From an uncultured Planctomycetaceae bacterium (lineage in GTDB: Bacteria > Planctomycetota > Planctomycetia > Pirellulales > UBA1268), in contig CALCGM010000113.1 of assembly GCA_937900985.1 (NCBI GenBank), positions 1-36,885 on the forward strand: a stretch of DNA of 36,885 nt, given 5' to 3'. Of this stretch, positions 13,540 through 36,345 are shown in pieces (position 1 is the first letter of the stretch; every line of letters begins with the position of its first letter). Below the pieces are notes generated by a model. The model was not told where the DNA came from. It saw only the letters and a program-made list of their open reading frames with translations, and searched no databases. Both the position numbers and the translations under genes were made by a program.

Positions 13540-14835
13540 TCACGCAAACAGCTCGGGCATCACGGTGCCGTCGCGAACGATCATCACCGGACGGCCCGTG
13601 TTGGTGAGATACTCCTTGGCCGGATCGATACCCAGCGCGTGGTAGAAGGTGGCTGCCACGTCGTCGGGGGAGTGGCCTTCGTGCAGCGGGCCTTCGCCCT
13701 TGGCGTCGGTCTCGCCGAGCACCCGGCCTCCCTGAATGCCGCCGCCGGCCATCAGCATAAACATCGCGCGGGCGTAGTGGTCGCGGCCGTTGCGGGTCGT
13801 GTTGATCTTCGGCGTGCGGCCAAACTCACCGGTCACATACACGATCGTGGAGTCGAGGAGGCCCTTCTGCTCAAGCCCCGCAAACAGCGCCGACAGGCCT
13901 TCGTCGAGCGGCGGCAGCTGCTGCTCCTTGAGCTTGGTCCAGTTGTCGTTGTGGGTGTCCCAGCCACCAAACGAGACGGTCACAAACGGCACGCCATGCT
14001 CCACGAGCCGTGTGGCCAGCAGGCAGCTCTGGCCAAAGTTGCTCTCGCCAAACGGCTTGGCAAACGCCGGGCTCTCCAGCCCGGTGTTGAAGGCCTCGCG
14101 GGCCCGCGGTGAGGTGATGATGGTGTGGGCCTGTTCGGTGAACTGATCGAGCCCTTCGATCAGCTGGCTCGACTCCTCGAGCATGCCCAGCCGCTGGTCG
14201 AGGTCGCGAAGCAGGCCCTGCCGACGACGGACATTGTCGATCGTCAGCGTGCCGCCGAGCGACACACCCCGCACGCCATACGGCTGCCCAGGCTTCGGCA
14301 CCGACCGGGTCGACAGCGCCGCATACTTCACGCCGAGGTAGCCGGCGCTCTGGTTGATCTTCGGAATCGCCACATGCGTCGGCAGCTCCTCCGGCCCGCC
14401 AAGCTCGCGGCTGACGACCGCGCCGTAGCAGGGAAACTCAAGCGACGGAATCGGCCGGTTGCCCGTGCTGACATACTGCTGCCCCAGCGGATGGGCGGCC
14501 AGCGAATGGGTGATGCCCCGCAGAATCACATACGTATCAAGACACGCCGCGAGCTTGGGGAGATGCTCGCTGACACGCACCCCCGGCACGCTCGTGCCGA
14601 TGGTGCCAAACTCGCCCCGGTGGCTGTCGGGAGCGTCGGGCTTGGGGTCGAACGTGTCGAGATGCGACGGGCCGCCCTCGAGGTTGACGAAGATCGCGGC
14701 CTTGGCTCGGGGCCGGGCCTCCGCCGCATGCGTCCACCGCAGGTAGTTGGCAAGCGTGAGGGCCGAGCCCCCGATCGCGCCAGCCCGCAAGAAGTCGCGG
14801 CGTGCCAAGCCATCACAGGTGCGGTGACGTGCCAT
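13540..14835 (-). CDS. DUF1501 domain-containing protein (alkaline-phosphatase/sulfatase-superfamily fold), Tat-type signal, 431 aa
   Basis: Twin-arginine signal ARRDFLRAGAIGGSALTLA, then NLEGGPSHLDTFDPKP and C-terminal GEFGRTP ... GRDH ... GGGIQGG. The ORF opens at 14883. ATG at 14835 is preceded by GGAGGA 8 nt upstream and is preferred. Confidence 0.9.
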   Translation of the reverse strand: MARHRTCDGLARRDFLRAGAIGGSALTLANYLRWTHAAEARPRAKAAIFVNLEGGPSHLDTFDPKPDAPDSHRGEFGTIGTSVPGVRVSEHLPKLAACLDTYVILRGITHSLAAHPLGQQYVSTGNRPIPSLEFPCYGAVVSRELGGPEELPTHVAIPKINQSAGYLGVKYAALSTRSVPKPGQPYGVRGVSLGGTLTIDNVRRRQGLLRDLDQRLGMLEESSQLIEGLDQFTEQAHTIITSPRAREAFNTGLESPAFAKPFGESNFGQSCLLATRLVEHGVPFVTVSFGGWDTHNDNWTKLKEQQLPPLDEGLSALFAGLEQKGLLDSTIVYVTGEFGRTPKINTTRNGRDHYARAMFMLMAGGGIQGGRVLGETDAKGEGPLHEGHSPDDVAATFYHALGIDPAKEYLTNTGRPVMIVRDGTVMPELFA

Positions 14836-14929
14836 GCTATCGGTCCTCCGAAGGTCGTCGAGACTGTTGATCGCCGCCGGCATGGGCGGCCCGGTGAACG
14901 AGGCGGTTGATCGTGGCGCGTGATCGAGC

Positions 14930-17743
14930 CTAGTGATTGAGCTGAAACTCTTTCGTGTTGAGCAGCGCCCACATCAGGTCGCGGGCCGCCTCTCGATCGG
15001 AAACTTCGGCGAAGTAGCCGCGGGCCCGCTCCAGCTCCTCTGGCTCTGGCAGCCGCGTGAGCGTGCGGAGGTAGGCCGATCGCACGAGCTGGCTGATCGC
15101 CTCGTCGTCGAGCTTTCGGCTGCTCGACGCCGCCGCGGCCTGAGGTCGATCGCCTGGAGCGGCGTCGCCTGCCTTGAGCGCTGCGAGCCGCTTCTCGGCA
15201 GCCGCGAGAAACCGCCGCCCGTTCGCGAGAAACGCTTCATCGTTTTCCTGCTTGGCCCGGGCCAGCCTCGCCTTCCCCTTCGCGATCATCGCCTCAAGCT
15301 CAGGGGCTGCCATGTTCCAGAACCGCTCCCGAGCGGGCGATTCCGCCGCAGGCTCCGCGGCCGCCGTGCCGGTCACCTCCGCCACCCAGCCCTCAGGCCG
15401 GCCGATCATAGAGAGCATCTCACCGTCGTTTTGCAGGAAGACCGTCTGCAGCAGGCTCGGCTCCATCGAACGGTCGCAGTCGCAGTTGCTCTCGCGGATC
15501 GACTGCCCAAACACGCTCAGGGCGTAGTCGGGCCGGCGGGGATCGACGATCGGATCATCGATGGCCCGGTCGGCCTCAAGCGAGCAGAGCGCCTGCGACT
15601 CTTCGTTGCCCGCGGTCGCGATCTTGATCGCGTCGTAGATCACCTCGGCCGGAACCCGCCGCGGCACCGACCGGGCAAAGTTGCGGTCGTCGCCAGCGTT
15701 GGTCGCGTTTGGCTGCCAGCTGAGCTGATAGGTTCGGCTGGAACAGATCTCGCGGTGCAGCCACTTCAGGTCGTAGCCGTGCTCACGAAACCCGCTCGCC
15801 AGATGGTCGAGCAGCGGCTCGTTGCTCGGCGGGTTGGCCAGGCTGAGGTCGTCGGGCGGCTCCACGATGCCGACGTTGAAATAGGAGGCCCACACGCGAT
15901 TCACAATCGCTCGGGCGAAGTATGGGTTGTCGGCACTCCGCATCCAGGCCATCAGCAGCTCGCGTGGATCCTCAACCGCGTCGAGCGCCGTTTCGTCGCC
16001 CCCAAGAACCGCAGCCGTCCGGCCGGAAAGAAACTGCTCGAGCCGCGCCTGCTGCTGCGGGTTGGCAGCCGCCCGGGCCTTCAGGCGGGCCATCGCCTCA
16101 TCGCTCATCGGCTTCGGCGGAGGAAGCACAACCGTTTCGCCAAAGGGCACGACCTTGCCCCGCGCTGCCAGCCGAACGAGCTGCTGATCGAGCTGATTCC
16201 CACGGAGCTTTGGATTGATGTCCAAGGCTTCCATCATTTCGGTGGCTTCGTCGGCGTCCGCCAGCTGACGCAGCTGCTGATACCGCACGCGAGCGAAGAA
16301 GTTTTCAAAGCGGTCGAAGTCGTCTTTCGTCCACTGATCAAACGGATGCTTGTGGCACTGGGCACACTGGATGCGAACACCGAGAAACGCATAGGCGAAG
16401 CCGAGCGCCCGCTCCTCGTTGGTGCGGAAGTTGCGGCGGCTCCAGTAGTAGGGCATCGTGTGCTGCTCTTCGGCAAACTCGCCCGCATGCCCCCGCACGA
16501 GATAGCCGCTCATCCGCTCGCAGTAGTCTTCATACGACTCGTCGCCTTCCCGACTCGTGGCGAGCACGATCCGCTCAACCAGCTCGTCGTAGGGCGTGTT
16601 TTCCGCCACGCGAGCCCGCATCCACTCATACCAGAGCACCGACGCGGTGTTTCGGCGGTCGGGGCCGTTTTGCTGATTCTCTTGGGCGTTGTTGCCCGTC
16701 CAGTCGCAGAACTTGGTGGCCCACCAGGCCGCATAGCCAGGCCTGTCGAGCAGCTCGTCGATCTTGAGCGCCCGCTTGTCGGGATTCGTGTCGGCAAGAA
16801 ACGCTTCGGCCTCCGCTTCGGTCGGCAGGGTGCCCGTCAGGTCGAGCGACACCCGCCTGAGAAACTCACCATCGGTGCAGAGATCGGAAGGCACCTCACC
16901 GAGCTTGCGGAGCTTCGCCACCACCAGCTCGTCGATCGGCGTCGGCGTGGGCACGTCGGGATAGGCAGGCCCAACCTTGTCGGAGACCGGAAAGAGAATC
17001 GGCACAGGCACAACGCCATTGTCGTAGAAAGCCACCACATGCGTGTCGCCGGGACCGGCCGCCGTCACGAGCCCATGCTCATCGATCGTGGCGATCTGAT
17101 CGTTGTTGCTCTGAAAGCGGCACAGCGGCGTTACGTCTTCCCGCGATCCATCCGACCACACAGCGACCGCCTGCAGATGCCACTGCTGGCCCACGTCGGA
17201 GGCCACCAGCTCTTTCGGCTCCACCTCAAGCCGCACAAACTCCGCCGCGTCGTCGTCAACGCCGGCGGCTCCACCATGAATCCACTGCTCAAGCACCCGC
17301 AGCTGCCAGGTGTCGTGCTCGAGCCTCTGCCCACCCTCGTGCGGCTCTTCCTCGAGCGGCTTGAGCAGGGCCAGGCTCTCCCGGGGCGAGGCCACGTTGA
17401 TCCGCGGCTCATCACCGCCGACGAGGTTTTCGTGGTCGGCCTTGAAGTCGTAGCCGAAGAGCGAGAGCTGGAAGCCACCCTGGCCCTGGAATGAGCCGTG
17501 GCACGCGCGGCCGTTGCAGCCGAGCCTGCCCATCAGCGGCACGACATGCCGCCGGAAGTCGGGGATCTCAGCGACGTCGCCGCTGCCAGCTTCAGCGTAG
17601 CGGGCGTCGATGCGGGAGAGTGAGGCCTCGCCTGCGGCAGCCGCGGGCACGATCGCCCAGCAGGCGACAAGCATCAGCAGAACCAGCGAGGCCACAGCAG
17701 CAGCCCCCAAAGATCTCTGCCGGCCGGGTCGTTGTTTGCCCAT
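14930..17743 (-). CDS. DUF1549/DUF1553 domain-containing protein with Ig-like (Big_2-type) insert, 937 aa
   Basis: N-terminal GRLGCNGRACHGSFQGQGGFQLSLFGYD. An Ig-like segment follows (WHLQAVAVWSDGSREDVT...VTAAGPGDTHVVAFY). Then SLDLTGTLPT, the DUF1549-type CAQCHKHPFDQW, and a DUF1553-like C-terminal half (LANPPSNEPLLDHLA...). The ORF opens at 17830. ATG at 17743 gives MGKQRPGRQRSLGAAAVASLVLLMLVA and is preceded by a G-run. Confidence 0.88.
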   Translation of the reverse strand: MGKQRPGRQRSLGAAAVASLVLLMLVACWAIVPAAAAGEASLSRIDARYAEAGSGDVAEIPDFRRHVVPLMGRLGCNGRACHGSFQGQGGFQLSLFGYDFKADHENLVGGDEPRINVASPRESLALLKPLEEEPHEGGQRLEHDTWQLRVLEQWIHGGAAGVDDDAAEFVRLEVEPKELVASDVGQQWHLQAVAVWSDGSREDVTPLCRFQSNNDQIATIDEHGLVTAAGPGDTHVVAFYDNGVVPVPILFPVSDKVGPAYPDVPTPTPIDELVVAKLRKLGEVPSDLCTDGEFLRRVSLDLTGTLPTEAEAEAFLADTNPDKRALKIDELLDRPGYAAWWATKFCDWTGNNAQENQQNGPDRRNTASVLWYEWMRARVAENTPYDELVERIVLATSREGDESYEDYCERMSGYLVRGHAGEFAEEQHTMPYYWSRRNFRTNEERALGFAYAFLGVRIQCAQCHKHPFDQWTKDDFDRFENFFARVRYQQLRQLADADEATEMMEALDINPKLRGNQLDQQLVRLAARGKVVPFGETVVLPPPKPMSDEAMARLKARAAANPQQQARLEQFLSGRTAAVLGGDETALDAVEDPRELLMAWMRSADNPYFARAIVNRVWASYFNVGIVEPPDDLSLANPPSNEPLLDHLASGFREHGYDLKWLHREICSSRTYQLSWQPNATNAGDDRNFARSVPRRVPAEVIYDAIKIATAGNEESQALCSLEADRAIDDPIVDPRRPDYALSVFGQSIRESNCDCDRSMEPSLLQTVFLQNDGEMLSMIGRPEGWVAEVTGTAAAEPAAESPARERFWNMAAPELEAMIAKGKARLARAKQENDEAFLANGRRFLAAAEKRLAALKAGDAAPGDRPQAAAASSSRKLDDEAISQLVRSAYLRTLTRLPEPEELERARGYFAEVSDREAARDLMWALLNTKEFQLNH

Positions 17744-17911
17744 GGAAAGCCCCCCTGCAAGTCCCCGCCGCCATGCACGCGGCATCATGAACGCGGCGTT
17801 GCCGGCTCCACGCCCACCGCAACGCATCAACCACTCCAGTATATCGTGAAAAACGGCAGACCGTCTCCAGCAACTGCGAAAACCGTGCCAAACAGGCGGA
17901 TCCGCAGCCGT

Positions 17912-19468
17912 TTAGGGCGCGATCGGACGCAGTTCGCGGCCTGCTTCGTCAACCGGATACTGGGCCCCATGGGCTTCCAGGTCGGCGATCAGACCCCGCA
18001 TCATGTCCGCGAGTTTCAACGACTCAGTCTCGGCGAGGTTGCGGTGTTCGAAGGGGTCCTCACGCAGATTAAACAATTCATACCGCACCTTCGCCGGGTT
18101 TTGCTCGGGCAGGTAGTGGTAGACGACCTTCCAGTCGCCCTCGCGAAACACCGTGTAGTAGCTGCTGCGGTGGCTGTGCGGAAAGTGCATCAAAAACCGC
18201 TTCTCGCGGTCTGTGTGCACCGCTCCGGCAAGCTGCGGCGCGAGGTCGACGCCATCGACCACATGCGTCGCCGGCGGCTCCACGCCCGCAAGGGCCAGCA
18301 GGGTGGGGTAGAGGTCCATCACGGTGCCGAGCCCCTCATGCACGGAGCCCTCCGCAATCGGCAGCCGCTGCTGGCAGGCAGCTCCCGCCGACGGCTCCGC
18401 CCAGGCCGCGATGAACGGCGTCCGCATGCCGCCCTCGTAGTGTGTGCCCTTCTTGGCCCGCAGCGGAAACGAGCTGGCATGCCCATGCACAGGCCCCAGC
18501 GGAGCATCGCTGCCGTTGTCGCCAAGAAACAGGATCAGCGTCTCCTTCGCCACGCCGAGCGCGTCGAGGTGATCGAGGATGTCACCCAGAGACCTATCCA
18601 TGCCCTCGATCAGCGTGGCGTAGGCCTCCGCCGGCTTGGGCTTGCCCGACTCGGCATAGCTGCCCGCAAACCTCGGATCGGAATGAAACGGCGCATGCAC
18701 CGCATAGTGAGCCAAGTCGAGGAAGAAGGGCACGCCATCCTCAACGGCCTGGCTGATCTGCTTCTTCGCTTCGATCGTGAGGGCCTCGGAAAGAAAGGTG
18801 TCGGTGCCGTGGTAGGCCTCGAGATGGGGCACGGCACGCTTTGCATTGCCCTTGATCGCCCCGTAGCCATCCTCCCCGTAGTAGCTTCCCGGCTGGCCCC
18901 ACGAGCAGCCGGCGATGTTGGTCTCGAAGCCGAGGTTGTCGGGCCATTCCGAAGGCTCACCGATCGGCCCGAAGTGGGCCTTGCCGACAAACATCGTGCG
19001 ATAGCCCGCCGTCTTCAGGAGCCCCGGCAGCGTGACCGACGCGTCGTGCACCCCAGTCCAGTTCCACTCCGGAGGCCCAAACGGCCCACGGTTGTTTTCC
19101 TCCGAGCGAATCCACTGCGTCACGTGGTGGCGGGCAGCATTTTGACCGGTGAGGATCGACGTCCGCGTCGGTGAGCAGACGCTCATCGCATAGAAGGTGG
19201 AAAACCGCACGCCGCGGTCAGCCAGCCGCTGCATGGCCGGCGTGCGGTAGAAGTCGTTGAGCGGGTAGCGAACAGGCTCGCCATCGCCGTTGGTCATGAA
19301 AGGCACCGAGGTGTCCATCGGCCCCATGTCGTCGACGAGAAAGACGACGATGTTGGGCTGCTCTGTGCTCGCCTGCACAGCAGCCACAGCCGCTGTGCCG
19401 CAGAGCCCACAGACACCGAGGACAAGAGCGGCGAGCCCACCCGCCTTCACCATCCAACAGCTTTCCAT
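17912..19468 (-). CDS. sulfatase (formylglycine-dependent arylsulfatase family), exported, 518 aa
   Basis: PNIVVFLVDDMGPMD, the sulfatase signature SVCSPTRTSILTGQ (C-x-P-x-R), and GKAHFG. The signal-like N-terminus is MESCWMVKAGGLAALVLGVCGLCG. ATG at 19468 is preceded by AAGGGGGAG. The ORF-track start at 19531 would overlap the giant gene. Confidence 0.92.
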   Translation of the reverse strand: MESCWMVKAGGLAALVLGVCGLCGTAAVAAVQASTEQPNIVVFLVDDMGPMDTSVPFMTNGDGEPVRYPLNDFYRTPAMQRLADRGVRFSTFYAMSVCSPTRTSILTGQNAARHHVTQWIRSEENNRGPFGPPEWNWTGVHDASVTLPGLLKTAGYRTMFVGKAHFGPIGEPSEWPDNLGFETNIAGCSWGQPGSYYGEDGYGAIKGNAKRAVPHLEAYHGTDTFLSEALTIEAKKQISQAVEDGVPFFLDLAHYAVHAPFHSDPRFAGSYAESGKPKPAEAYATLIEGMDRSLGDILDHLDALGVAKETLILFLGDNGSDAPLGPVHGHASSFPLRAKKGTHYEGGMRTPFIAAWAEPSAGAACQQRLPIAEGSVHEGLGTVMDLYPTLLALAGVEPPATHVVDGVDLAPQLAGAVHTDREKRFLMHFPHSHRSSYYTVFREGDWKVVYHYLPEQNPAKVRYELFNLREDPFEHRNLAETESLKLADMMRGLIADLEAHGAQYPVDEAGRELRPIAP

Positions 19469-19479: not shown

Positions 19480-22400
19480 TCAGGCTGTGGCCACTCGCCG
19501 CCAACGAACACTCCTGGCGACCGCACCACACCCAAACACAGCAGTCGCCATCCCCACCAGTGGCAGCGTCAGCGTCAGCATACTGGCCAGGCCCAGCAGG
19601 ATCAGCAGCAGCCCCCCGGCCCGAGGTCCAAGTCGCCTCCAGGCCAGGCCACCGAACGTGGCCAGCACCCAGCAGCCGACGACCGCCGCCAACACAAGGG
19701 CCAGCCGCGTGCCGCGATCGACGAGCCGTGCATCCACCGCTTCCGCCGTGATCACGAGATCGCCGCGGGGCGTGGTGAAGAGAACCTCGCGGCCACGCGT
19801 GGGAATCGCCACTTCCAGGCTGGCCAAGCCTGTGGCTGGCGACTGCGCCGCGGCAACGCCGAGCGCGGCCGCGGCGGTGTCGTCGACGCCGCTGCCAAAC
19901 CAGCTGGTCCCGCCTCCCAGACCGCCACCCATGCCACCCAGCCCGCCCGCGCCGCCCATGCCGCCGGCAAAGCCATCGCTGCGGCCTTCGGGCAAACCGC
20001 CGCGACGGCTCTGCCGCAGCAGCGACTCCTCCGCCTCTTCTGCAAGCCTGCGATCTCCCAGGAAGCCACTGGCAGGGGCGTTGGTCGGCGACTGCTCGAA
20101 CTGCCTCTGCTGCTGACCTTCCAGCCCATCCCGTTCGAGACGAAGCTGATACCGCTGCACCTGATCGCGGAGTTCCACGGCCTGCTGCTGGGGCTCGCGG
20201 GTGGAAGCTTCGCCAGCCTGCTCACCTCCACGGCCGAGCGAACGCTTCTTCTCGATGTCTTCAAAATTGACGTCAAACCCAGGTCGTTCCGCGGCGGCTG
20301 CCGGATCCGCGACCTGCTTGGCGAGTTTTCGAACCGCAGCGGCACGCTCTCCGTCCGCCAGCCCGTCCCCAGCACTGCGACCAAAACGGTTGCTGTCGAC
20401 CCAAACACGATTGAGCGAGCTGGTCTCGGCCGCTCTGTCCTCCACGGGCCCCGGGGCCTCAAAGTTGAGATTCAGCTCCTTGACCACGTTCGTGCCGCGG
20501 GCCACCTGCTGGCCGTCGAAATAGGCCCGCAGCTGGCTTCCGTTGCCAGCGGCTGCCTCCATGGCCTCAGCCGGCATCTGCCCTGCCTGGGCTTGCGACT
20601 CCTCGACGATCGCCGAGTTGGTCATCAGCTCACGCTGCAGCCGATCGTTGCCACCACTCGCTCGGCCGGAGCCGCTATACGAATCGACGTAGCCCTGCAA
20701 CGACTCACCAAGCTGCAGGGCGTTTGTGCGAGCACGGACACGGGAGAAGACATCCTGCGACTCCGACGACGCGACCTGCATCAGCTGCTGCAGTTTCTTG
20801 TTTTGGTAGGCCAGAAAGTCGGCTGCGAGTTCGTCTGCATCGTCGGTCTGGCGGAGGGTGCCGTCGAAGCCAAACCAGCGGTGGGTTTCCGGCAGCCAGA
20901 GCCGCACCTGGCTCTGCTCCACATTGATGTTGATCGTCTCGAGAAACGGAAACCGCACCGACGCCTTCGTCCCAAGTGGCCCGAGCGTTCCTCCGTAGGT
21001 GAGCACCACGGCGTAGTCGAGGTCGCCTGCCTGCGTCTTGATCAGCGGAATGCCGACGCGACGACCGTTGTCGTCGTCCACCGCGGTGGGCTTCACCGGC
21101 TCGCCCGCGACCACCGCCGACCAGAGCGTGGCCCCGTCTGGGAGCTGCACCTCCAGCAGCTGCTCCGTCTTGTTGTCGATGCGGTATTCCTGGGTGGCTC
21201 GATACACACCGCCCCCATCCACCGAGAGCGTGGTCACGGCCAGCCCGATCCGAGCCCCCGCCGATTCGACCAGGCTTCGCGACCGCAGGCCGATGCCAAG
21301 CCGCGGCGCCACGGCGTCAGCCGCCACCAGATAGGCCTGCGTGGCGGTGCCGGGCAGGATGCTCGCGAGCTCTCGCCAGGCTGCCTGCTGGCGGCTGAGC
21401 TCCCGCACCCCCTCGCTCTCCGTGACCACGATCTCGTCGCGGCCCTGGTTTTCGAGCACCACGAAACGGTGCTCGGTGGTGCCCGTCTCAATCTGCGGCA
21501 CCGCCGCGGCGTGCGTTTGGTCAACGAGCGGCCCCGTGTGTTCGACGAGCACGGCAAGCGGGCCGATCACGTCGTCTTGCAGCTGGAGATGAAACCGCAC
21601 CAGGCCTGGCTGCTCGGCGACCGGCTCAACGGTCTTCTCCAAGAGCAGCGGCACATGCACCAGAGCGTCCTGCAGCGTTTCCGGCAGCAGGAACGACAGC
21701 TCACGAATGCCCGCCTCGGCGATGTCAAAACGCAGCAGCACTGTCTCGGCCAGTTCGCGGGGCGTGACCTGCACGTTGGTCAGCCCCACGGCCTTCACCA
21801 CCGGCTGCCGCCTGATCGCCTGAAAATCAGCCTGGAAGCCAGGCCCTCGTGCAAACACCGCGAGTCTGGCGAGCGTTCGCTGTTCCGCGGCAAGCCAGGT
21901 GAAGGTCTGCGGGAGGGGGATGGTCTCCGCGTTTTCCAGCCCAGCAACTTCCACGCTCACCGATGGATCCGCCTGCACGACCAGCGTTGTCGTCTGCCGA
22001 CGGGCGTCCACCACCACAAACGCCGGCGCGGCCACACGCATCCCGCCGTCGAGCGTTCCCGTGATCGTCGCCGACCAGGCCCCCGTCGCTCCGGCTGTCA
22101 GATCGATGACAAGCCGCGGCACGCTCCCCGGCACCACCGTCCAGCCCGACAGACCGCGGCAGTTGACCTGCTCCACGGTCACCCCCGCGGGCAGCTCCAC
22201 CTGCAGCCGATGCGTGGGCCGGTCATCGATCACACAGGCCAGCCTCGTCTCGAAGGTCGACTGCCGCTGGGCAATCCGCAGGAGGGTCTGCACGTCGACG
22301 GCCAGCTGCGACGCACGCGGACGGGGAGCGACCTCAAGCTCGAAGCGATCGTTGGCGAAGCGGTAGGCCTGGAAGGCCTGCACGGCCAGCGGGCTCTCAT

Positions 22401-27300: not shown

Positions 27301-30300
27301 GGTCGTCGGCTCCTTTCCCAGCGGTGGCCCCACCGTTGCCAGCAGCCGCTGCTGCGGCCGGCGGAGACGCCTGAGGCTGAGGGCGGCGACGGGTGGCCGA
27401 CCCGGCAAGCCACAGCAGGCCCACTCCCGCCAGGCCAACCGCAAAGAACTGGTCGACAACCTGCATCGCCAGCATCGGCATCAGGATGCCGGTGGCCACG
27501 AGCCCCATTGCCAGCAGCACGAGCACCGCCAGCTTGGTGGACAACCGCGACCGCACAAACAGCAGGCCAATCAGCGTCAGGCCACCGAGCACGCCGCCGG
27601 TCACCAGCCGGTGATCGACCGCCACGATCGCCAGTGCCCCTTCAGGCGGAGCGCTGGGCCGCAGGGCAGTGAAGCGATACGACCGGCCATCGGTCGCAAA
27701 CGACCGCAGCCGCCCCTGATCGACCGGCAGGCCTTCGCTCACCCAGTTCAGCAGATCGCTGTCGTCGCCCTGCCGCCACGGAAGGCCGTTGAGCGCTGCG
27801 AAGAAGTCGTTCTGCTCGTTCGTCCAGGGGCCGCGTGTGTCCAGCACGGCACGTTCTTCCGGCAGCGCAACCACCAGCGACACCTTCTGCACGGCCGGCT
27901 CGGTGGCCACGCCCTGCTGCTCGGGAAACACCGGCAGCTCAAGCTCCGCGCACGTGCCAGGCAGGGTGTATCGCATCTCCACAAGGCTGGGCTGATCTGG
28001 GCCCTGCGAGACCAGCGGGATAAAGAGCTGCTCCCCTTCGCCACGCTCCAGCGGCTGCGGCTGGCCATTGATGGTCAGCATGTCCATGTCGAACTGGCTG
28101 CCAGCCGGGAGGATCACCGCAAGCCGCTGCAGCACGCTGCGAACGCGGTAGATCGCCTGCACGGTGATCTCGTCGCTGCGGGTGACCACCATCCGCACCA
28201 CCGCCCGCTCGATGCTCGCCCGCTTGACCTCCTCAAGCTCATACCGCGTGGCGGTCACGGTGAGATTCCAGGCGTCGGTAAACTCAAAGGCTCGGGCCGC
28301 ATCAGCCCCGGCCGCCCCTGGCATCAGATCGTGCTGAGGGTCGATGGGCCGCAAGCCGCTCAAGCCTGAGGCCGGACGGATGTCGAGGGTTTCGGCCTTG
28401 CTGATGAGTATCTGCCCCCAGGCCCGATCAACCCCGCGGGGGGTGAGCACCGGTAGGGGATACTCGCCGCTCTCCCCAACGGCCAGCTCCGGCACGACCT
28501 CCTCCCAGGTCAGCGGAATCACCAGCTGGCCGAGCAGCTCGCCTTCGCCGCGAAACTCCATGGCCACATCCCCCTCCGCCACGTCTTCCGGCTGAGGGTC
28601 GAGCAGGCTCTTGGTGAAGCCTGCGTTGACGGGGAGCCTGGCGATCGCCGCCACGGCTGCAGGAACATCGATCCGCAGGGAGCTGACTGGGCTGTAGGCC
28701 ACCTCAAAGGTGAACGTGGCTTTCGAACTGACCACGCCCGGCTCCACAGCAACCGCCAGCAGCTGGCGGGCCGTCACCTGCGGCCGTCGTCGCTCCGCCG
28801 AGAGCGTCAGGCGGGCAGCCTCCTGGGCATACGCAAACGCCATCACCTCTCGCAGCCCCGGCGCCCGACCGTCACGAACGCTCGGCAGCTCGCGGCGGGC
28901 ATCGGCCACCGCCACCTCCTGCAGCCTGGATCGGCCTGTTGCCGTCAGCTGCAGGCTCTCCGGCCCCAAGACCACGAGCCTGCCGCTCGACCGCCGCACC
29001 GGCGTGGCGATCGTCGGCAGCGGGATCTCGAGCGTGCTCGCTTCGCCAGTCGCCGTCAGCAGGTTGGGGTCGTCGAGCGGCCGAATCAGCGTGACCAGCA
29101 GGCCAACCCGGCCAATCGCCTTGCCGGCGAGGTTGACCGAAAGCCGTCTGCTGCCATCGTCAGCCAGATGAAAGGTGTCGACGCTCGCCGGCTGACTCTC
29201 GCCGAGCTGGCGGCCCTGCACCCGGCGAACCTCGTAGCCCTCAGGCACTGCGAGCTCCAGCTGAAACACGCCAGCGTCTTCGATGCCGAAGACCGTCGCC
29301 ACGTCGAGCACGAGCTGATTCGGCTCGACGTAGGCCTCGATCAGCTGCTGGGCCTCGATCCGCGGCTGCACCGCCTCCACGGTGAGCACGAGCGAAAAGG
29401 GCATCGCGGCTGCCCGGTAGGCAAAGTCCCACGGTGTCGAGCGGAGCGGTTCGGGCAGCTCGGTCGCGTCGAGCTGCAGCAGCCCATCGGTCACCGCCGC
29501 CTCACCACGAAGCTCGTCGGCGAGCCGCACCGCCACGACTCCCTGCTGTCGGCTCACCCCAACCGCCTGCACACTCGGGATCGCCAGCGACCTGAGGCTC
29601 TCTCCGTCAAGCAGCTGTTCGAGCTCAATCGAGAGCTGCTGCTGGCCCCGCACCGGCTCAAACAGCTCCGCCGTGATCCGCTGCTGCCCGTCGACGTCCG
29701 CCACATCCCACTGCCGCACATTCGGGTCGAGCACTCGCGTGATCTTCTGGCTCGCGGGCACGTCCACCACCAGCTGCGGCAGCTCGGCGCGGCTCACGCT
29801 GTAGGTCAGCTCGGCACGCGTCCGCAGGAGCCCCTCGTCGACGGTCACCTCCTGCCGCGACTGCACGCTGGCCACTGCCGCCATGCCCGAGGCACCCTCC
29901 GCCTTGGGTGTCCAGTCGATGCGGACGCTGGCAGCCGGGCCCACAAAGGCGAGCACCACCGTCTCGCCTTCCGAGGGCGGATTCGCATCGCCGCTGTCGG
30001 CAGGCACCTCAGCTGCAGCGAGCATCGGCTGCACATTGACGGTCACCCCCGACTGGGGCACCCGAATCCGCCAGCGGTTGACCGCCGCCCGCGGCGACTG
30101 AAACGACACCGAGTTCTGGCCCGGCGATTTGGTGAAGGCCTTGGAGTAGTCGAGGGTGAGCGTCAGGCTCCGCGGCGTCTCCTGATCATGCTCAACCAGC
30201 AGCGCGGAGCTGCCGTCGTCGGCAACCACCACGCGGGCTGGCTCACCATCGATCGTGGCCACACGCACCGCCGCGTCGGCCAGCCGCAGGGGGATTTCAT

Positions 30301-30706
30301 GCCAGCCCTTGCCGAGCAGCTCGATTGCCACCCGAGCCCGCACGCGGACGACGTCGGCCTCGACCGTCGCCTCGCTCTCAATGTCGGTGATCACCGCGCC
30401 AACCGGCGGCGGCTCGTCGGGAGCCGGCTCATCGGCCAGCCTCGCCTTCCGCCAGAGCTCCTGAAACTTCTCGTACGGGATGAAGACCCCGCGGCCATCC
30501 TCCTCAAACACGCCCCGCAGTTTGCGGTAGGGGATGTAGATCGTCTGCTCGCGGAGCGGCTGTTCGGCGGTCTCGTCCGCAACGGCGACCGGCTGCGGCG
30601 TCCCGCCATCCACCGCCGGCTGATCCTGCCCGAGGCCCACCGCTCCCCAGGCCAGCGAGAGCGCCACACCCGCCACAACGACCACACCACGACAGCAGCG
30701 TTTCAT
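27293..30706 (-). CDS. large membrane-anchored envelope protein, single-module paralogue of the giant downstream protein, 1137 aa
   Basis: ATG at 30706 is preceded by GGGGGAAAG and gives the signal peptide MKRCCRGVVVVAGVALSLAWGAVGLG. The ORF track opens at 30817. A ~1000-aa Ala/Val/Leu/Arg/Thr-rich ectodomain follows, then a C-terminal 3-helix hydrophobic cluster (about nt 27400-27610) and a short Pro/Ala/Gly tail. Confidence 0.8.
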   Translation of the reverse strand: MKRCCRGVVVVAGVALSLAWGAVGLGQDQPAVDGGTPQPVAVADETAEQPLREQTIYIPYRKLRGVFEEDGRGVFIPYEKFQELWRKARLADEPAPDEPPPVGAVITDIESEATVEADVVRVRARVAIELLGKGWHEIPLRLADAAVRVATIDGEPARVVVADDGSSALLVEHDQETPRSLTLTLDYSKAFTKSPGQNSVSFQSPRAAVNRWRIRVPQSGVTVNVQPMLAAAEVPADSGDANPPSEGETVVLAFVGPAASVRIDWTPKAEGASGMAAVASVQSRQEVTVDEGLLRTRAELTYSVSRAELPQLVVDVPASQKITRVLDPNVRQWDVADVDGQQRITAELFEPVRGQQQLSIELEQLLDGESLRSLAIPSVQAVGVSRQQGVVAVRLADELRGEAAVTDGLLQLDATELPEPLRSTPWDFAYRAAAMPFSLVLTVEAVQPRIEAQQLIEAYVEPNQLVLDVATVFGIEDAGVFQLELAVPEGYEVRRVQGRQLGESQPASVDTFHLADDGSRRLSVNLAGKAIGRVGLLVTLIRPLDDPNLLTATGEASTLEIPLPTIATPVRRSSGRLVVLGPESLQLTATGRSRLQEVAVADARRELPSVRDGRAPGLREVMAFAYAQEAARLTLSAERRRPQVTARQLLAVAVEPGVVSSKATFTFEVAYSPVSSLRIDVPAAVAAIARLPVNAGFTKSLLDPQPEDVAEGDVAMEFRGEGELLGQLVIPLTWEEVVPELAVGESGEYPLPVLTPRGVDRAWGQILISKAETLDIRPASGLSGLRPIDPQHDLMPGAAGADAARAFEFTDAWNLTVTATRYELEEVKRASIERAVVRMVVTRSDEITVQAIYRVRSVLQRLAVILPAGSQFDMDMLTINGQPQPLERGEGEQLFIPLVSQGPDQPSLVEMRYTLPGTCAELELPVFPEQQGVATEPAVQKVSLVVALPEERAVLDTRGPWTNEQNDFFAALNGLPWRQGDDSDLLNWVSEGLPVDQGRLRSFATDGRSYRFTALRPSAPPEGALAIVAVDHRLVTGGVLGGLTLIGLLFVRSRLSTKLAVLVLLAMGLVATGILMPMLAMQVVDQFFAVGLAGVGLLWLAGSATRRRPQPQASPPAAAAAAGNGGATAGKGADDHA

Positions 30707-30939
30707 CAGCTTTCCCCCACCGCAGACAAGGCTTCCCACGCACAGATCCCTCGGCTGTAGCCTAGTTTCGAGGCGTCTTCGGTGCGACGTTCGGCCTGAA
30801 AACCGTCGCGAGCCCAAGCGGCGGCCCCCCTCAGTCGCTCAGGCAGCTGAAAAAGTTCCCCGCCGCCTTCCGGCAGGCAGACCAGCGAGCGACAGACGCC
30901 CGCAGCTTGCGAGCAGCCCCCGGGCCGCGGAGCCTTCGG

Positions 30940-32277
30940 TCAGATCCGCAGGAAGAGCTTGCGGCGGGCCATCCAGAAGAGGATCAGCCAGTAGATGGCG
31001 AGCACAGCTCCGCCGGAGACGAGAGGCTCGTAGGCGTCGCCGGCCATGTGGAAGAGCTCTTCTCCCAGGAAGGTCTGGAAGTTGCTCCGCAGGAAGCCCT
31101 CGATCAGGTGGGCGATCATGTAGGCGGCAATCGAGTTCATGCCGATCACCCGCAGGGGAAACGACCAGGCGGCAAAGCCGGTCATGTCGTTGAGCAGGTA
31201 AAAGCCGGCCAGCAGCAGGAAGCACCAGCCGCCGCTGACGAGCACCCACGATGGCGTCCAGATCCGCTTGACGCTCGGGCAGATGCCGAAGTGGTCGAGG
31301 GCGAGGCCCGCCCCCAGGCAGACGCCCCCGGCCACGATCATCATGCCGAGTTTCGCCCACGACGTGCGATTGGAGAGGAGCCAGCCGCCGGCAATCAGCC
31401 CGAGCAGCGACGTGCCGAGCGTGGGGATGAAGCTCAGCGTTGCATAGCCGCCGCTGTTGAAGAGAAAGGGCTCGGCCCGCGGGAAGAGGTTGAGAAACCA
31501 GGTGTCAAACTTCCAGGCGAGGTTGGCGTTTTTATTCCAGTGGGCGGCGAGGCCCTCGCCGTGCTCCGTCCAGCCGTCGTCCACGCCCACAGCGGCATAG
31601 TCAAAGTCGGCCGGTGGGGCCGGGAAGAGGGCAAACGCTCCCCAGGTGCCTACGAGGATCACCAGCAGGCTGATCCACCACACGCGTTTGGGAGCAAGCG
31701 AGATGAGAAAGAGCGGAAAGTAGCCGAGGCCGATCTGCGTGAGCGTGTCTTCAAAGGTGAAGTTCGGTTGCTCACGGCCGAGCGACCGCAGCCAGATGCC
31801 GAGCACCGTCAAGAGCACGGCCCTCCAGGCGGCATGCACCACCGTCCAGCCGAGGGCGTCGCCCCGCGAGCGGCGATGGTTGAGCGAAAGAAACACGCTC
31901 ACTCCAACGAGAAAACTAAACGACGGCTGAATCAGGTCGTGCAGCGAGCAGCCGCGCCACGGCACATGGCTCTGGTGATGGGCGAGAAACCGCATCACCG
32001 AGCAGTCGCCGATCGCCTCGCTCACGCGGCTGAAGTGCAGCACCTCCGCCATCATCAGGAGCATCACAAAGCCGCGATACGCATCGACCGACGCCAGCCG
32101 CTTCCACGGGGCAGGCTTGTCGGCCGCGACCGACGCATCAGGCGGCGGGGCGTTGGCTGCGGGCGGCTCTGCCGGCGGAGGCGGGGAGGCTGGTACCGCC
32201 CCCGCAGCCGGTTCGCTGGCAGCATCTTCCAAGAGCCGCTCATACGCAAACGCGTTGCCGCTGTTCTCGGTGTCCAT
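30940..32277 (-). CDS. polytopic membrane acyltransferase-like protein (heparan-alpha-glucosaminide N-acetyltransferase-like, DUF1624/DUF5009-type), 445 aa
   Basis: A Pro/Ala-rich N-terminal tail is followed by KRLASVDAYRGFVMLLMMAEVL, the family's R-x-x-S-[LV]-D-x-x-RG motif at the start of TM1. About 10 further hydrophobic segments follow. ATG at 32277 is preceded by GGAGGA (32283-32288). The ORF track starts at TTG 32280. Family call is by motif only. Confidence 0.65.
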   Translation of the reverse strand: MDTENSGNAFAYERLLEDAASEPAAGAVPASPPPPAEPPAANAPPPDASVAADKPAPWKRLASVDAYRGFVMLLMMAEVLHFSRVSEAIGDCSVMRFLAHHQSHVPWRGCSLHDLIQPSFSFLVGVSVFLSLNHRRSRGDALGWTVVHAAWRAVLLTVLGIWLRSLGREQPNFTFEDTLTQIGLGYFPLFLISLAPKRVWWISLLVILVGTWGAFALFPAPPADFDYAAVGVDDGWTEHGEGLAAHWNKNANLAWKFDTWFLNLFPRAEPFLFNSGGYATLSFIPTLGTSLLGLIAGGWLLSNRTSWAKLGMMIVAGGVCLGAGLALDHFGICPSVKRIWTPSWVLVSGGWCFLLLAGFYLLNDMTGFAAWSFPLRVIGMNSIAAYMIAHLIEGFLRSNFQTFLGEELFHMAGDAYEPLVSGGAVLAIYWLILFWMARRKLFLRI

Positions 32278-32398: not shown

Positions 32399-33874
32399 TC
32401 AGGCCAGGATCTCGCTGACCACCCGTCGCTCTTCGACGCCGCTGAGCCGTAGGTCGAGGCCTTGAAAGGGGACGGTCAGCCGCTTGTGGTCGATGCCCAT
32501 GCAGTGCAGCACGGTCGCATGCAGGTCGTTCACATGCACCGGCTGATCGACGATGTTGTAGCCGTAGTCGTCGGTTGTGCCGTAGGTCCTGCCCCCCTGG
32601 ATGCCGCCGCCCGCCATGAAGATGGAGAAGCAACGGGGGTGGTGATCGCGGCCGTAGGTTTCGTTGGTCAGCGTGCCCTGGCAGTAGACGGTGCGTCCAA
32701 ACTCCCCGCCCCAGATGATCAGCGTGTCGTCGAGCAGCCCCCGCTGCTTGAGATCAGCAATCAGGCCTGCCGTCGGCTGGTCCACATCCTTGGCCTGCTT
32801 CGACATGTGGTCGGGCAGGTTGTCGTGCTGATCCCAGCCCATGTGGTAGAGCTGGATAAACCGCACGTCTCGCTCAGCCAGGCGGCGGGCGAGCAGGCAG
32901 TTGCGGGCGTAGGTGCCGGGCTTGTGGACGTCGGGGCCGTACATGTCGAGCACATGCTCCGGCTCGTCGGCCAGATCAACGAGTTCTGGCACCGCCGACT
33001 GCATGCGGAAGGCGAGCTCATACTGCTCGATGCGGGTGGCGATCTCCGGATCGTGGAGCCGCTCGAGGGCGTGCTGATTGAGCCCCCGCAGGTCGTCGAG
33101 CATCTGGCGGCGAATCTGCGGCGGGCAGCCCGCGGGATTGGCGAGATAGAGGATCGGCTCGGCAGCCGCCCGCAGTTTCACGCCCTGGTAGCGGGAGGGC
33201 AGGGGGCCGCTGCCCCAGAGACGGTCGTAGAGAGGCTGGCCCGCAGCCCGGCCCGTGCCCCGCGACACCATCACCAGAAACGACGGCAGGTTGTCGTTGA
33301 GGCTGCCGAGGCCGTAGGCGATCCAGGCCCCCATGCTCGGCCGGCCCGCCAGCTGGCTGCCGGTCTGAAAGAAGGTAACTGCGGGATCGTGGTTGATCGC
33401 CTCGGTGTGCATCGAGCGGACCACGCAGAGCTCGTCGGCCTGCGCGGCGATGTGCGGAAACAGTTCACTGATCCAGGTGCCGCCGCTGCCGTGCTGCGTG
33501 AAGGCAAACTTCGAGCGGGCCACCGGAAAACTCGACTGCCCCGAGGTCATGCCGGTCAGCCGCTGCCCCATCCGCACGCTGTCGGGCAGTTCGGTCTCAT
33601 GCAGCTCGGCAAGCTTTGGCTTGTGGTCGAAGCTCTCAAACTGCGAGGGCGCCCCCGACTGAAAGAGATAGATCACCCGCTTGGCCCGCGGGGCGAAGTG
33701 CGGCAGCCCGGCAAGGCCGCTGCTGGCGGTGGCGGCATGCGTCGAGCGGCCCGCCAGCGACGCCATCGCAAGGCTCCCGAGGCTCAGCCCCGAGCGGCCG
33801 AGAAACGTGCGGCGGTTGGCCGGAAAAGCAGCCGCCGTGCGATCGTGGGTCATCAAGAGGTCTCCGTTGCTCAT
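32399..33874 (-). CDS. DUF1501 domain-containing protein, Tat-type signal, 491 aa
   Basis: NRRTFLGRSGLSLGSLAMASLAG (twin-arginine), YLFQSGAPSQFESFDHKP, WDQHDN, GGEFGRT ... GRDHH ... GGGIQGG. ATG at 33874 overlaps the upstream stop (ATGA). The alternative ATG at 33853 has GGAG upstream. Confidence 0.9.
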   Translation of the reverse strand: MSNGDLLMTHDRTAAAFPANRRTFLGRSGLSLGSLAMASLAGRSTHAATASSGLAGLPHFAPRAKRVIYLFQSGAPSQFESFDHKPKLAELHETELPDSVRMGQRLTGMTSGQSSFPVARSKFAFTQHGSGGTWISELFPHIAAQADELCVVRSMHTEAINHDPAVTFFQTGSQLAGRPSMGAWIAYGLGSLNDNLPSFLVMVSRGTGRAAGQPLYDRLWGSGPLPSRYQGVKLRAAAEPILYLANPAGCPPQIRRQMLDDLRGLNQHALERLHDPEIATRIEQYELAFRMQSAVPELVDLADEPEHVLDMYGPDVHKPGTYARNCLLARRLAERDVRFIQLYHMGWDQHDNLPDHMSKQAKDVDQPTAGLIADLKQRGLLDDTLIIWGGEFGRTVYCQGTLTNETYGRDHHPRCFSIFMAGGGIQGGRTYGTTDDYGYNIVDQPVHVNDLHATVLHCMGIDHKRLTVPFQGLDLRLSGVEERRVVSEILA

Positions 33875-36345
33875 CGGCTCACCGTCTCATCGAGGTTGAG
33901 GAGCACGGTGGCGACGGCGGTGAGCGCCGCGAGCTCTGGCGTGCGTTGATCTTCGGGAATCGGTGAGCCGCCGTGTGCGAGCAGGGCGATCGCGTCATCA
34001 GGATGCTCACCGTAGTAGGCCGCATAGTGCTGATAACTCCGCGCAAGCGCCGCCTGCTCAGCCTCCGCCGGCTGGCGACTCGTTGCCAGCTCGAAGCCCA
34101 GGCGGAGCTGCTCACGGAGATCACTCCCCGCCTCGTCCTGCATCCGCTCCGCCAGGTGCGCGGCAGCCTCGGCATAGGTCGTGTCGTTGAGCAGAGCAAG
34201 CGACTGCAGAGGCGTGTTGGTCGTGCCGCGTTTGGCCTGGCAGATCTCCCAGCTTGGCGCGTCGAACGTGGCGAGCGTCGGATGCGAGACCGTCCGCTTG
34301 CGAAACGTGTAGAGGCTGCGGCGGTAGAGGTCGTCGCCTTCGGAGAGCACATACGGCCCGCCGCTTGCGCCTCCGGCAAGCTCATCCCAGAGGCCGTCCG
34401 GCTGGTAGGGCTTCACCGAAGGCCCGCCGATGCGGCCGGCGAGCAGGCCCGACACCGCCAGGGCGTTGTCACGAATCATCTCCGCGGAGAGCCTGCGGCG
34501 GGGCCCGCGAGCGAGCAGCCGGTTGCTGGGATCGCGGTCGCGGAGAGCTGGCACCACCGCTCCGGTCTGCCGGTACGTCGCCGAGAGGGCGATCTCCCGC
34601 TGCAGCGCCTTCACATCCCAGCCGCTCTCCACAAACCGCACCGCCAGCCAGTCGAGCAGATCGGGATGGCTCGGCGGGTCGCCCTGCACGCCGAAGTTGT
34701 CGGCGGTGGCCACGAGCCCTTGGCCAAACATCTGCTGCCAGATGCGGTTGACCATCACTCGCGCAGTGAGGGGGTTGGCCGAATCGACCAGCCAGCGGGC
34801 AAGCCCCAGCCGGTTCTTCGGCACCGCCTCGCCAAGCTCTCCCAGCGACACAGGGATCTGCGGCGAGAGCGTCTCCGACTCCTCCGGCTGGTCATACTGT
34901 CCGCGGTGCAGCAGGTAGGTAGGCCGCACCTCGCCGCGGTCTTTCATGATCATCGTGGTCTGGATCGCCGCGTTGAGCTCGTTCCGCTGTGTGGTGAGGG
35001 CCTCGGCCTCCGCCTTGAGCTCTGCGAGCTGGGCCTGCGGGGCGTCGTCGGCCTCAAGCACGGCCTCCGACGCCTCTGCGTTTTCGTCTCTTGCCTCTGC
35101 CTCAGCCGCCTTCGCCTCGGAGGCCGACGTCGCCGCTGCGAGCCGGGCCGACACCTCAGCGAGCGAGCGATCCAGCACCGCGAGCTGCTCGGTCTGCTCG
35201 GGGGTGGGCAGCGAAATCATCGGCGGCACGTTGCCCCGCCGCTCGTTGTAGACCCCCTGCTCATCAACATTGTTGAAGAAGGCAAAAAACTGATAGAAGT
35301 CGCGGCGGCTGACGGGATCGTATTTGTGGTCGTGGCAGCGGGCGCAGCCCATCGTCAGGCCGAGAAATGCTGTCGAGGTGGTTTCCACACGGTCGACCAC
35401 GTTCTCCACCCGCCACTCTTCATCGATCGAGCCGCCCTCGGTGACCATGCGGTGGTTGCGGTTGAAGCCGGTGGCAATCAGCTGCTCCTGCGTGGGCTCG
35501 GGCAGCAGATCACCGGCAAGCTGCTCAAGGAGAAACTGATCCGCCGGCATGTTGGCGTTAAACGCGCTGATCACCCAGTCCCGCCAGGGCCACATGCTGC
35601 GGTTGAAGTCGTTCTGATAGCCGTTGGTGTCGGCGAAGCGGGCGATGTCGAGCCAGTCGGCCGCCATCCGCTCGCCGTAGTGGGGCGAGGCCAGCAAGCG
35701 ATCGACCTGTTTCTCAAATGCATCGCTCGACACGTCGGCCGCAAACGCCGCGAGTTCGGCAGGCGTCGGCGGCAGCCCCGTCAGATCAAACGACACCCGC
35801 CGCAGCCACTCGCCGCGGCTGGCCGGCTCGCTCGGCTCAAGGCCCTCGGTGTTCAAGCGGGCCCACACGAAGTGATCGATCGCGGAACGCGGCCAGGCCG
35901 TGCCTTCGCTGTCTGGCACAACTGGCATCGCTGGTGGCACAAACGCCCAGTGGCGTGCCCAGGGAGCCCCCTGATCGATCCAGCGACGCAGCAGTGCGAC
36001 CTGTTCGGCCGTCAGCTGCCGCTCCATCTCTGGTGGTGGCATGCGGAGGTCGTCATCCGTGCTCTCGATCCGCTTGATCAGTTCACTCGCTGCCGCGTCG
36101 CCGCGAACAATCGCGTGCTCGGTCGCGGCCTCTTCCGTGTCGAGCCGCAGGTCCGCCGCCCGCTGCTCGGCATCAGGCCCGTGGCAGGCAAAGCAGTTGC
36201 TCGCCAGGATCGGCAGGATGTCGCGGGCAAAGTCGACCGGCTGCTCGCGAGATGCGTCAGCAGCCCAGCTGCCGGAGAACCCGGCGGACCACACGCACAC
36301 CATGGCGAACAAGGCACCCACACGGCTGCGATGGCGGCAGTTCAT
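33871..36345 (-). CDS. planctomycete cytochrome C (PSCyt) + DUF1549 + DUF1553 (PSD1) domain-containing protein, 824 aa
   Basis: Signal-like N-terminus, then [24 protein letters not shown] (CxxCH, PSCyt-type), [30 protein letters not shown] (DUF1549-type), a coiled Ala/Glu-rich linker and a DUF1553-like C-terminal half ([14 protein letters not shown]...[13 protein letters not shown]). Confidence 0.9.

Follow-up and report, generated by a model that had tools for sequence, protein, structure and literature searches.

Giant envelope proteins, a sulfatase and DUF1501 pairs in a 23-kb planctomycete gene cluster: probably separate units side by side

RESULTS

Contig CALCGM010000113.1 (C113) of the assembly GCA_937900985.1, from an uncultured Planctomycetaceae bacterium of the order Pirellulales, is 36,885 nucleotides (nt) long and constitutes the whole stretch of DNA analyzed here, hereafter called the window. 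It is the longest of 749 contigs in a 3.8-Mb assembly that is 82% complete and has a G+C content of about 67%. An open reading frame listing together with direct reading of the sequence reproduced eight successive co-directional genes on the minus strand, from 13540 to 36345, and all seven junctions between them, exactly as given in an original prediction, which had proposed that two giant envelope proteins encoded there serve as the capture or scaffold part of a sulfated-glycan processing locus resembling a polysaccharide utilization locus (PUL). The gene composition of this cluster, which combines the giants with a sulfatase, an acetyltransferase-like protein, and two DUF1501 pairs, is unusual for a random stretch.

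In the direction of transcription, the cluster begins with a gene for a PSCyt1-PSCyt2-PSD1 protein of 824 amino acids (aa) (33871 to 36345, minus strand like all eight genes; Pfam PF07635, PF07583, and PF07587), which carries two CxxCH motifs, at residues 51 and 334. Through an ATGA overlap of 4 nt (33871 to 33874), it is followed by the gene of its partner, a 491-aa DUF1501 protein (DUF1501_b; 32399 to 33874; PF07394, E = 4e-154) predicted to be exported through the twin-arginine translocation (Tat) pathway, with the Tat motif RRTFLG. A second pair closes the cluster. It consists of a 937-aa PSCyt2-PSD1 protein (14930 to 17743), in which Pfam detected a weak Big_2 segment but no PSCyt1 domain and which has one CxxCH motif, and of a 431-aa DUF1501 protein (13540 to 14835; PF07394, E = 2e-97) with a TIGR01409 Tat signal and an RRDFL motif, whose gene begins 94 nt past that of its PSD1 partner. 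In both pairs, a PSCyt2/PSD1 protein adjoins a DUF1501 protein with a Tat signal. This is the two-gene architecture of the PSCyt/PSD1 + DUF1501 module already described in the Planctomycetes-Verrucomicrobia-Lentisphaerae (Kamneva et al. 2012, PMC3542564), and the window's pairs, which belong to a set of about 55 copies in the genome, are essentially the same as that module, except that the second one lacks PSCyt1 and has the weak Big_2 segment. A link of the module to giants, sulfatase, or NagX has not been described, and none was found here.

The placement of DUF1501 in the alkaline phosphatase/sulfatase superfamily, which had been claimed beforehand, was borne out by structure prediction. 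An AlphaFold model of DUF1501_b, for which the alignment consisted of 22 paralogues from the same genome, reached a predicted local distance difference test (pLDDT) score of 83 and a predicted template-modeling (TM) score of 0.83. Its top 50 Foldseek matches in the PDB were all sulfatases, phosphonate monoester hydrolases (PMH), LtaS, or alkaline phosphatase (probability 1.0, E = 5e-9 to 2e-5, TM 0.28 to 0.40), and DUF1501 also gave weak matches to the Pfam families Sulfatase and Phosphodiest (E of about 0.05). A motif scan for the formylglycine motif C/S-x-P/A-x-R found it absent outside the signal peptide in both DUF1501 proteins. The modeled fold is thus that of the alkaline phosphatase superfamily, without the formylglycine motif. 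In the window's genome (G000), DUF1501_b has 36 paralogues, and the columns that are invariant across 22 of them include D83, K85, P86, H162, W347-D348-x-H350, and R409 together with H411 (in GRDHH); these residues resemble a metal and active site and may help in searching for the substrate.

Separated from DUF1501_b by a gap of 121 nt, the third gene (30940 to 32277) encodes a polytopic protein of 445 aa that matched the NagX model of NCBIfam (NF046061) from position 2 to position 369 of 369 (E = 2e-37). Since its score of 129 bits lies far under the equivalog cut-off of 480 and PF07786, like PF16401, gave no match even at E <= 10, the protein is, on profile evidence, a relative of the NagX family and not an equivalog. 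The resemblance to HGSNAT (heparan-alpha-glucosaminide N-acetyltransferase) noted in the original prediction stood up: structures of human HGSNAT matched the protein in two stretches (E = 2e-7), and a phmmer alignment with 8JKV placed its His105 under the catalytic His297 of HGSNAT (context H-x-x-W-x-G...DL..P.F.F..G; the role of His297 is given in PMC9007349). A crude hydropathy count gave about seven hydrophobic segments (>= 1.4 over 19 residues) and probably misses further helices. In five bacteria, fitness data link NagX to the use of glucosamine, and a transmembrane transfer of the acetyl group from acetyl coenzyme A (acetyl-CoA) was proposed (Price et al. 2022, PMC9007349). The window's protein shares with NagX of the Shewanella SO_3504 type and with human HGSNAT a polytopic membrane architecture and the aligned catalytic histidine, and its low-scoring match to the NagX model spans the full length, but it lacks the lumenal N-domain of HGSNAT and, unlike NagX, is not encoded beside nagA, nagK, nagP, or chitin genes.

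The next gap, of 233 nt, leads to the giants. Giant A (1137 aa; 27293 to 30706) comprises a signal peptide or N-terminal helix, a predicted chain of beta-sandwiches, and three C-terminal helices predicted to be transmembrane. Giant B (2606 aa; 19480 to 27300), whose start and the giant A stop share 8 nt, contains two more copies of the giant A module, both lengths being counted from the starts used here. The similarity of giant B to giant A amounts to 27% identity (E = 2e-17); its two modules are joined via four hydrophobic helices, and a Q/E/R- and Gly-rich tail precedes the last anchor. According to hydropathy, each module has a signal-like N terminus and about 1000 residues that read as exported, followed by hydrophobic helices, of which three follow module A, four separate module B from module C, and two or three come last.

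Neither giant matched any Pfam or NCBIfam family, and the profile of their family matched no solved structure in the PDB by sequence. For giant A, AlphaFold (59-sequence alignment, pLDDT 83) gave a string of all-beta sandwiches followed by three helices, whose Foldseek matches were confined to generic arrays of beta-sandwiches (integrin alpha legs, ribophorin I/Ost1, and ITIH1, TM <= 0.30). Giant A is thus predicted to be, like these membrane-anchored proteins, a beta-sandwich string that ends in membrane helices, but with TM scores of 0.10 to 0.30 and identities of 8 to 12%, the resemblance is one of fold class only; moreover, the giant module is bacterial and repeated three times. Searches against Pfam, NCBIfam, and PDB profiles and by fold revealed no sign of glycan handling in the giants, with no match to a carbohydrate-binding module (CBM), a lectin, or an enzyme. 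At 90% identity, the family falls into 856 or more clusters, all lacking a Pfam domain and named, where the source gives a name, "hypothetical protein." The pair occurs in at least 235 GTDB species genomes, labeled Pirellulaceae, Thermoguttaceae, Pirellulales, and similar, and in each of the six contigs with gene calls that were inspected, the two genes overlapped by 8 nt. The giant pair nearest to that of the window (86%) is found on a sequence titled "Candidatus Kuenenia sp." (L040, JAYQOK010000001.1), in whose assembly a sulfatase search gave 86 first-look candidates; the label or the binning of this sequence looks doubtful.

Directly behind giant B lies the gene of a 518-aa sulfatase with a signal peptide (17912 to 19468), which matched the full PF00884 model (E = 3e-42) as well as SGSH_C. 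Its CSPTR sequence at residue 98, within the PF00884 domain, agrees with the formylglycine-type sulfatase announced for this gene. The best PDB matches were 7OZ9, 6USS, 7OZA, and 9FO1, with an identity to 7OZ9 of about 62%, as estimated by eye from the printed alignment, over 486 residues (E = 3e-198). 7OZ9 is BT3057_S1_16, a sulfatase of Bacteroides thetaiotaomicron acting on 4-sulfated galactose/N-acetylgalactosamine (4S-Gal/GalNAc), and 7OZA and 9FO1 likewise belong to S1_16 (PMC11760155, from which all S1_16 labels used here were drawn). The nearest characterized relatives thus belong to S1_16. The window's enzyme can be named with some precision, as an S1_16, BT3057-like sulfatase, and Gal/GalNAc-4-sulfate specificity is predicted for it. 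It shares with BT3057 the length, the CSPTR formylglycine motif, the signal peptide, and the approximately 62% identity, but it comes from a different phylum and habitat, and S1_16 contains 6S-GalNAc and kappa-carrageenan sulfatases besides those of the BT3057 type. Trp, His, and Arg residues have been named as determinants of specificity (PMC11760155). An identity of this order to an enzyme of a gut Bacteroides is unusually high across phyla and suggests either a strong constraint in this branch of S1_16 or a transfer between phyla. A heparan sulfate pathway, in which a sulfamidase would be followed by the N-acetyltransferase, was prompted by the SGSH_C match and the HGSNAT-like gene and was rejected: the sulfatase belongs to S1_16, sulfamidase-type (S1_8) structures match it only at an E value of about 1e-10, and since it is not a sulfamidase, the heparan link to the HGSNAT-like gene falls.

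The Shine-Dalgarno sequence of the sulfatase gene overlaps the giant B stop (AAGGGGGAG-N4-ATG), the start lying 11 nt past the TGA. This junction is found in the window's genome alone, the gap in relatives being 84 to 170 nt long and not conserved in sequence. In two near-identical relatives, this gap contains a tandem direct repeat, GGTCACGGGAAGGCGAGCAGGGTCACGGGAAGC (L034, about 21500 to 21570, and L032 of genome G003, about 11290 to 11350).

The coexistence of these genes within 23 kb has to be seen against the gene load of the genome. The assembly holds about 54 to 57 DUF1501, about 61 PSD1, and 41 to 60 sulfatase loci, and hidden Markov model searches of it gave 60 DUF1501 and 64 sulfatase matches, fragments included. 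Because such loci are so numerous, finding a sulfatase and two pairs inside 23 kb is weak evidence of linkage. A permutation test in this genome showed a close pairing of DUF1501 with PSD1 (33 of 54 DUF1501 loci had a PSD1 locus within 500 nt, compared with 3.3 under the null), while the closeness of sulfatases to DUF1501 and to PSD1 was random (4 of 41 within 6 kb, with nulls of 4.2 and 5.1, respectively), and a genome-wide sulfatase-DUF1501 linkage was rejected on these grounds. As sulfatases are placed at random relative to DUF1501 and PSD1, gene order in the rest of the genome lends no support to the idea that the enzymes fit together. Nor do the enzymes, described as mutually consistent in the original prediction, obviously belong to one pathway, the sulfatase's relative cutting the 4-O-sulfate of Gal/GalNAc and NagX acetylating glucosamine.

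We then compared the locus with 61 genomes of the same order, the window's own included, with the 80 best species loci, and with metagenome contigs for which gene calls had been precomputed. The giant pair was present in 9 of the 61 genomes, and in an all-against-all comparison of seven giant neighborhoods, the two giants were the only genes common to all. Among the 80 best loci, an enzyme orthologue lay beside the giants in only two, both from the window's genus, namely, L041 (genome G004), with NagX, and L042 (genome G003), with the sulfatase and a PSD1 gene (PSD1_a); none was found in the other 78, nor in the distant metagenome contigs L035, L037, L038, and L039. In these four contigs, where giant A is 47 to 56% identical, the flanks are unrelated and often on the opposite strand, encoding a pyrroloquinoline quinone (PQQ) propeller, an ABC1 kinase, an extracytoplasmic function (ECF) sigma factor, a mechanosensitive channel, and a chemoreceptor (methyl-accepting chemotaxis protein [MCP]). 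The order PSD1-DUF1501-NagX-giant A-giant B-sulfatase-PSD1 was kept in G003, L033, L034, and L036, with giant A 63 to 70% and the enzymes 75 to 92% identical. The clade that keeps the full gene order is, judging from sequence, one of genus-level kinship, and the synteny across relatives on which the idea of a single locus depended reaches no further.

Even at this level, the arrangement is not constant. In G004 (giant A 83% identical), it is broken: two genes, one for a HupE/UreJ protein and one of 1068 aa, separate NagX from the giants, the sulfatase is on another contig, and its expected place is taken by a different gene and the contig end. The insertion (L022, on G004:C206, 13333 to 17889) comprises a HupE/UreJ-family gene of 419 aa and the 1068-aa gene, which has only marginal matches to DUF3604 and Reg_prop. 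In G061 (giant A 86% identical), orthologues of NagX and of the S1_16 sulfatase were not found in a 3.7-Mb assembly, the completeness of which is not established. From two further genomes of the window's genus, G001 and G002, giants, NagX, and S1_16 sulfatase are missing all together; these genomes are smaller (2.8 to 2.9 Mb) and yielded about 36 to 38 first-look sulfatase-search candidates, compared with 90 to 106.

The individual enzymes are distributed independently of the giants as well. S1_16 orthologues occurred in 12 of the 61 genomes, with 8 genomes having S1_16 without giants and 4 having giants without S1_16. NagX orthologues occurred in 30 of the 61 and lay on contigs other than that of the giants in G041, G049, and G053. 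Outside the window's genus, NagX as well as S1_16 orthologues were either located on different contigs from the giants or not found. In 12 other Pirellulales genera, NagX had no conserved neighbors, and a PSD1 or DUF1501 gene was located within 8 kb of it in 3 of the 12, about as often as copy number predicts. The ECF sigma gene was also considered as a conserved neighbor of the giants and was rejected, since it is present in L037 and L038 only and is thus clade specific. In these two contigs (L037, 21175 to 22836; L038, 21373 to 23052), it sits on the strand opposite to the giants, directly downstream of them, with a gene of 331 to 336 aa that could encode a candidate anti-sigma factor.

Finally, we looked for signals in the intergenic gaps. 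In the 233-nt gap, a motif of the ECF sigma type, GGAAC-N17-CGAC (30834 to 30859, minus strand), is situated some 130 nt upstream of the start codon of giant A and is the sole match in the 36.9-kb window. ECF sigma factor promoters are characterized by an AAC signature at -35 and CGT at -10. The intergenic motifs had been spotted by eye in close relatives and were then tested by regular expression with controls, the ECF-type one in 84 loci for which 400 nt or more of sequence upstream of giant A was available and with the expectation taken from the rest of the same loci. In 23 of the 84 loci (L033, L034, L036, L041, and 19 more), compared with 1.1 expected, the strict form, GGAAC-N16-18-CGTC, occupied the corresponding position upstream of giant A, while controls with wrong spacers, N10-12 and N22-24, gave 2 and 3 loci, compared with 1.0 and 1.3 expected. 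A relaxed form was found in 45 of the 84 (8.3 expected), and the motif was retained in G004 despite a different upstream gene. This suggests that expression of the giants depends on an alternative sigma factor, probably one that responds to envelope signals. Past the ECF-like motif and ahead of the start codon, the presumed leader of giant A contains a second short conserved word, GAACTAGGCTACAG / GAACTACGCT (approximately 30753 to 30768, minus strand), which was seen, by eye only, in L033, L034, L036, L040, and L041 as well.

In the 168-nt gap between the sulfatase gene and the second pair, alignment of five genus-level loci revealed a conserved block, TGCTGGAG...TTTTTCACGATATACT (17836 to 17872, minus strand), in which CTGGAG and CGATA..CT are invariant amid diverged sequence. 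It is likely the second PSD1/DUF1501 pair's own promoter or a -10-like element. Conserved promoter-like motifs are thus present in two of the gaps in which signals had been suspected, and they count against a single unit. A putative terminator in the 233-nt gap (hairpin and T-run, 30859 to 30877), flagged by a generic consensus scan, did not hold: the scan's total was lower than expected from shuffling (7 compared with 9.3), the "T-tail," GGGAACTTTTT, makes a better -35 for the ECF-type motif, and this candidate was rejected. Overall, the generic scan for promoters and terminators was uninformative, and blastn of the intergenic regions against relatives found nothing.

DISCUSSION

Taken together, these data make it likely that the 23-kb stretch consists of independent units that lie side by side and were inherited within one Pirellulales genus, rather than of one functional locus. 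The first unit would be the PSCyt1-PSCyt2-PSD1 gene, translationally coupled through ATGA to the Tat-exported DUF1501, a known module specific to the Planctomycetes-Verrucomicrobia-Chlamydiae (PVC) group. A lone enzyme of the NagX/HGSNAT type would form the second unit and, by homology, N-acetylate periplasmic glucosamine from cytoplasmic acetyl-CoA. The giant pair would be the third. Its three copies of a beta-sandwich chain of about 1000 residues would be exported by signal peptides and anchored in the cytoplasmic membrane by the C-terminal helices, its two genes would be coupled by the 8-nt overlap, with their own ECF-sigma-type promoter probably located in the 233-nt gap, and its role would be that of a nonenzymatic periplasmic or envelope scaffold. 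The sulfatase, predicted to be an exported S1_16 exo-sulfatase, is probably read through from the giants' transcript, in the window's genome only, because its start lies just 11 nt past giant B. The second PSD1/DUF1501 pair would be a fourth unit, with its own conserved upstream block, and the units would be expressed independently of each other.

The comparison with the PULs of Bacteroidota points in the same direction. Like them, the cluster has genes in a single direction that encode exported proteins, among them a carbohydrate sulfatase, here a close relative of B. thetaiotaomicron BT3057. However, it lacks a SusC/SusD-like pair, a glycoside hydrolase (GH) or lyase, a sensor or regulator, and a CBM; its gene content is not conserved past one genus, and its units have promoter-like motifs of their own. 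Families of GHs, polysaccharide lyases (PLs), and CBMs gave no match in the eight proteins at a Pfam E value of <= 0.01, nor in the giants and the NagX-like protein at E <= 10. Neither a SusC-like TonB-dependent transporter nor a SusD-like binding protein was found by Pfam scan in the eight products or among the other window genes scanned (valyl-tRNA synthetase, helicase, SnoaL, QueF, and nuclease domain). A PUL-like locus for sulfated glycans, with the giants as its capture or scaffold part, is thus unsupported: synteny ends at the genus, and two gaps inside the cluster carry promoter-like motifs.

Several observations weigh against separate units. The seven-gene order has been kept in four other sequences (G003, L033, L034, and L036) despite varying upstream genes, and it survives in L033 even with three small genes inserted, so that some selection for the block is conceivable. 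All eight genes are co-directional, and with the 11-nt junction, giants and sulfatase probably form one transcript here. The promoter motifs are no more than patterns in the sequence, and at -10 the window has CGAC instead of CGTC. Planctomycetes are, moreover, known for a weak organization of operons, with linked genes dispersed, and for this reason the missing wider synteny argues less strongly against a functional link than it would in Bacteroidota.

These observations bear on the alternatives. The giants might have been recruited, within this genus, as the periplasmic scaffold of a co-expressed sulfated-glycan set made up of the sulfatase, the NagX-like protein, and both PSD1/DUF1501 pairs. 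The order kept in G003, L033, L034, and L036 while the outer flanks vary, the short gaps between co-directional genes, the joint absence of giants, NagX, and S1_16 sulfatase from G001 and G002, and the predicted export or membrane embedding of every cluster protein would fit such a locus. We nevertheless regard it as unlikely, as the two genomes with the most similar giant A, G004 and G061, have the giants without the adjacent enzymes, the latter with neither enzyme orthologue, and there is no co-occurrence outside the genus. In addition, promoter-like conserved motifs interrupt the cluster in two gaps, the enzymes address different sugars (Gal/GalNAc-4S and glucosamine), a hydrolase, lyase, transporter, and binding module are all absent, and the joint loss in G001 and G002 may reflect the general reduction of smaller genomes. 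Quite unlikely, too, is the more elaborate picture in which the giants organize a periplasmic workbench for the stepwise processing of a sulfated amino-sugar polymer, their ECF-controlled operon having, in this genus, picked up an exported Gal/GalNAc-4-sulfatase and being placed for this reason between the glucosamine acetyltransferase and the two DUF1501 pairs, so that the locus would be a planctomycete counterpart of a PUL assembled from unrelated parts.

A narrower unit of giants and sulfatase appears improbable to us. Here, the giant operon, under ECF control, would have acquired the S1_16 enzyme, for instance for trimming a sulfated glycan or glycoprotein of the envelope held by the scaffold, and the other five genes would be bystanders. 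The 11-nt junction, with the sulfatase's ribosome-binding site over the giant B stop, and the position of the sulfatase after giant B in G003, L033, L034, and L036 speak for it, but the relatives' gap measures 84 to 170 nt and is unconserved, and the sulfatase is not adjacent in G004 and was not found in G061. Four giant-bearing genomes from other genera and families lack S1_16, eight S1_16 genomes lack giants, and the enzyme is 62% identical to a nutrient-scavenging exo-sulfatase of a gut Bacteroides. That same similarity, together with the patchy occurrence of giants, NagX, and S1_16 within the genus, could be taken as a sign of a horizontally acquired island. This seems very improbable given that the G+C content is even along the window (0.64 to 0.71), with no step at either cluster end, that no integrase, tRNA, or repeat boundary was seen, though no dedicated search was made, and that the giants and NagX have a typical, vertical-looking distribution across the order.

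Had the cluster been a conserved unit, it would have offered a first functional handle on the giant envelope proteins of Pirellulales, on the numerous DUF1501/PSCyt pairs, and on a breakdown of sulfated glycans that does without SusC/D. The evidence says that the adjacency is local and recent, and it is therefore unfit for inferring the function of the giants or of DUF1501. Juxtaposed units still leave useful results, namely, a sulfatase that can be named as S1_16, BT3057-like, and a DUF1501 family with a predicted alkaline phosphatase-type fold without the formylglycine motif. The giants are a still interesting unnamed family, and as a self-contained unit with a recurrent ECF-type promoter motif, they provide a regulatory lead that points to signal- or stress-dependent expression.

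The remainder of the window encodes, on the minus strand, a bifunctional-nuclease-domain protein (656 to 1060) and valyl-tRNA synthetase (1202 to 4318), and on the plus strand, a DEAD-box helicase (6364 to 7809), a SnoaL/DUF4440 protein (7941 to 8996), and QueF (11327 to 12175). Two small open reading frames without family (12268 to 12753 and 12770 to 13192), again on the minus strand, lie between these genes and the cluster. The part of the contig from 1 to 12753 is made up of housekeeping or unrelated genes.

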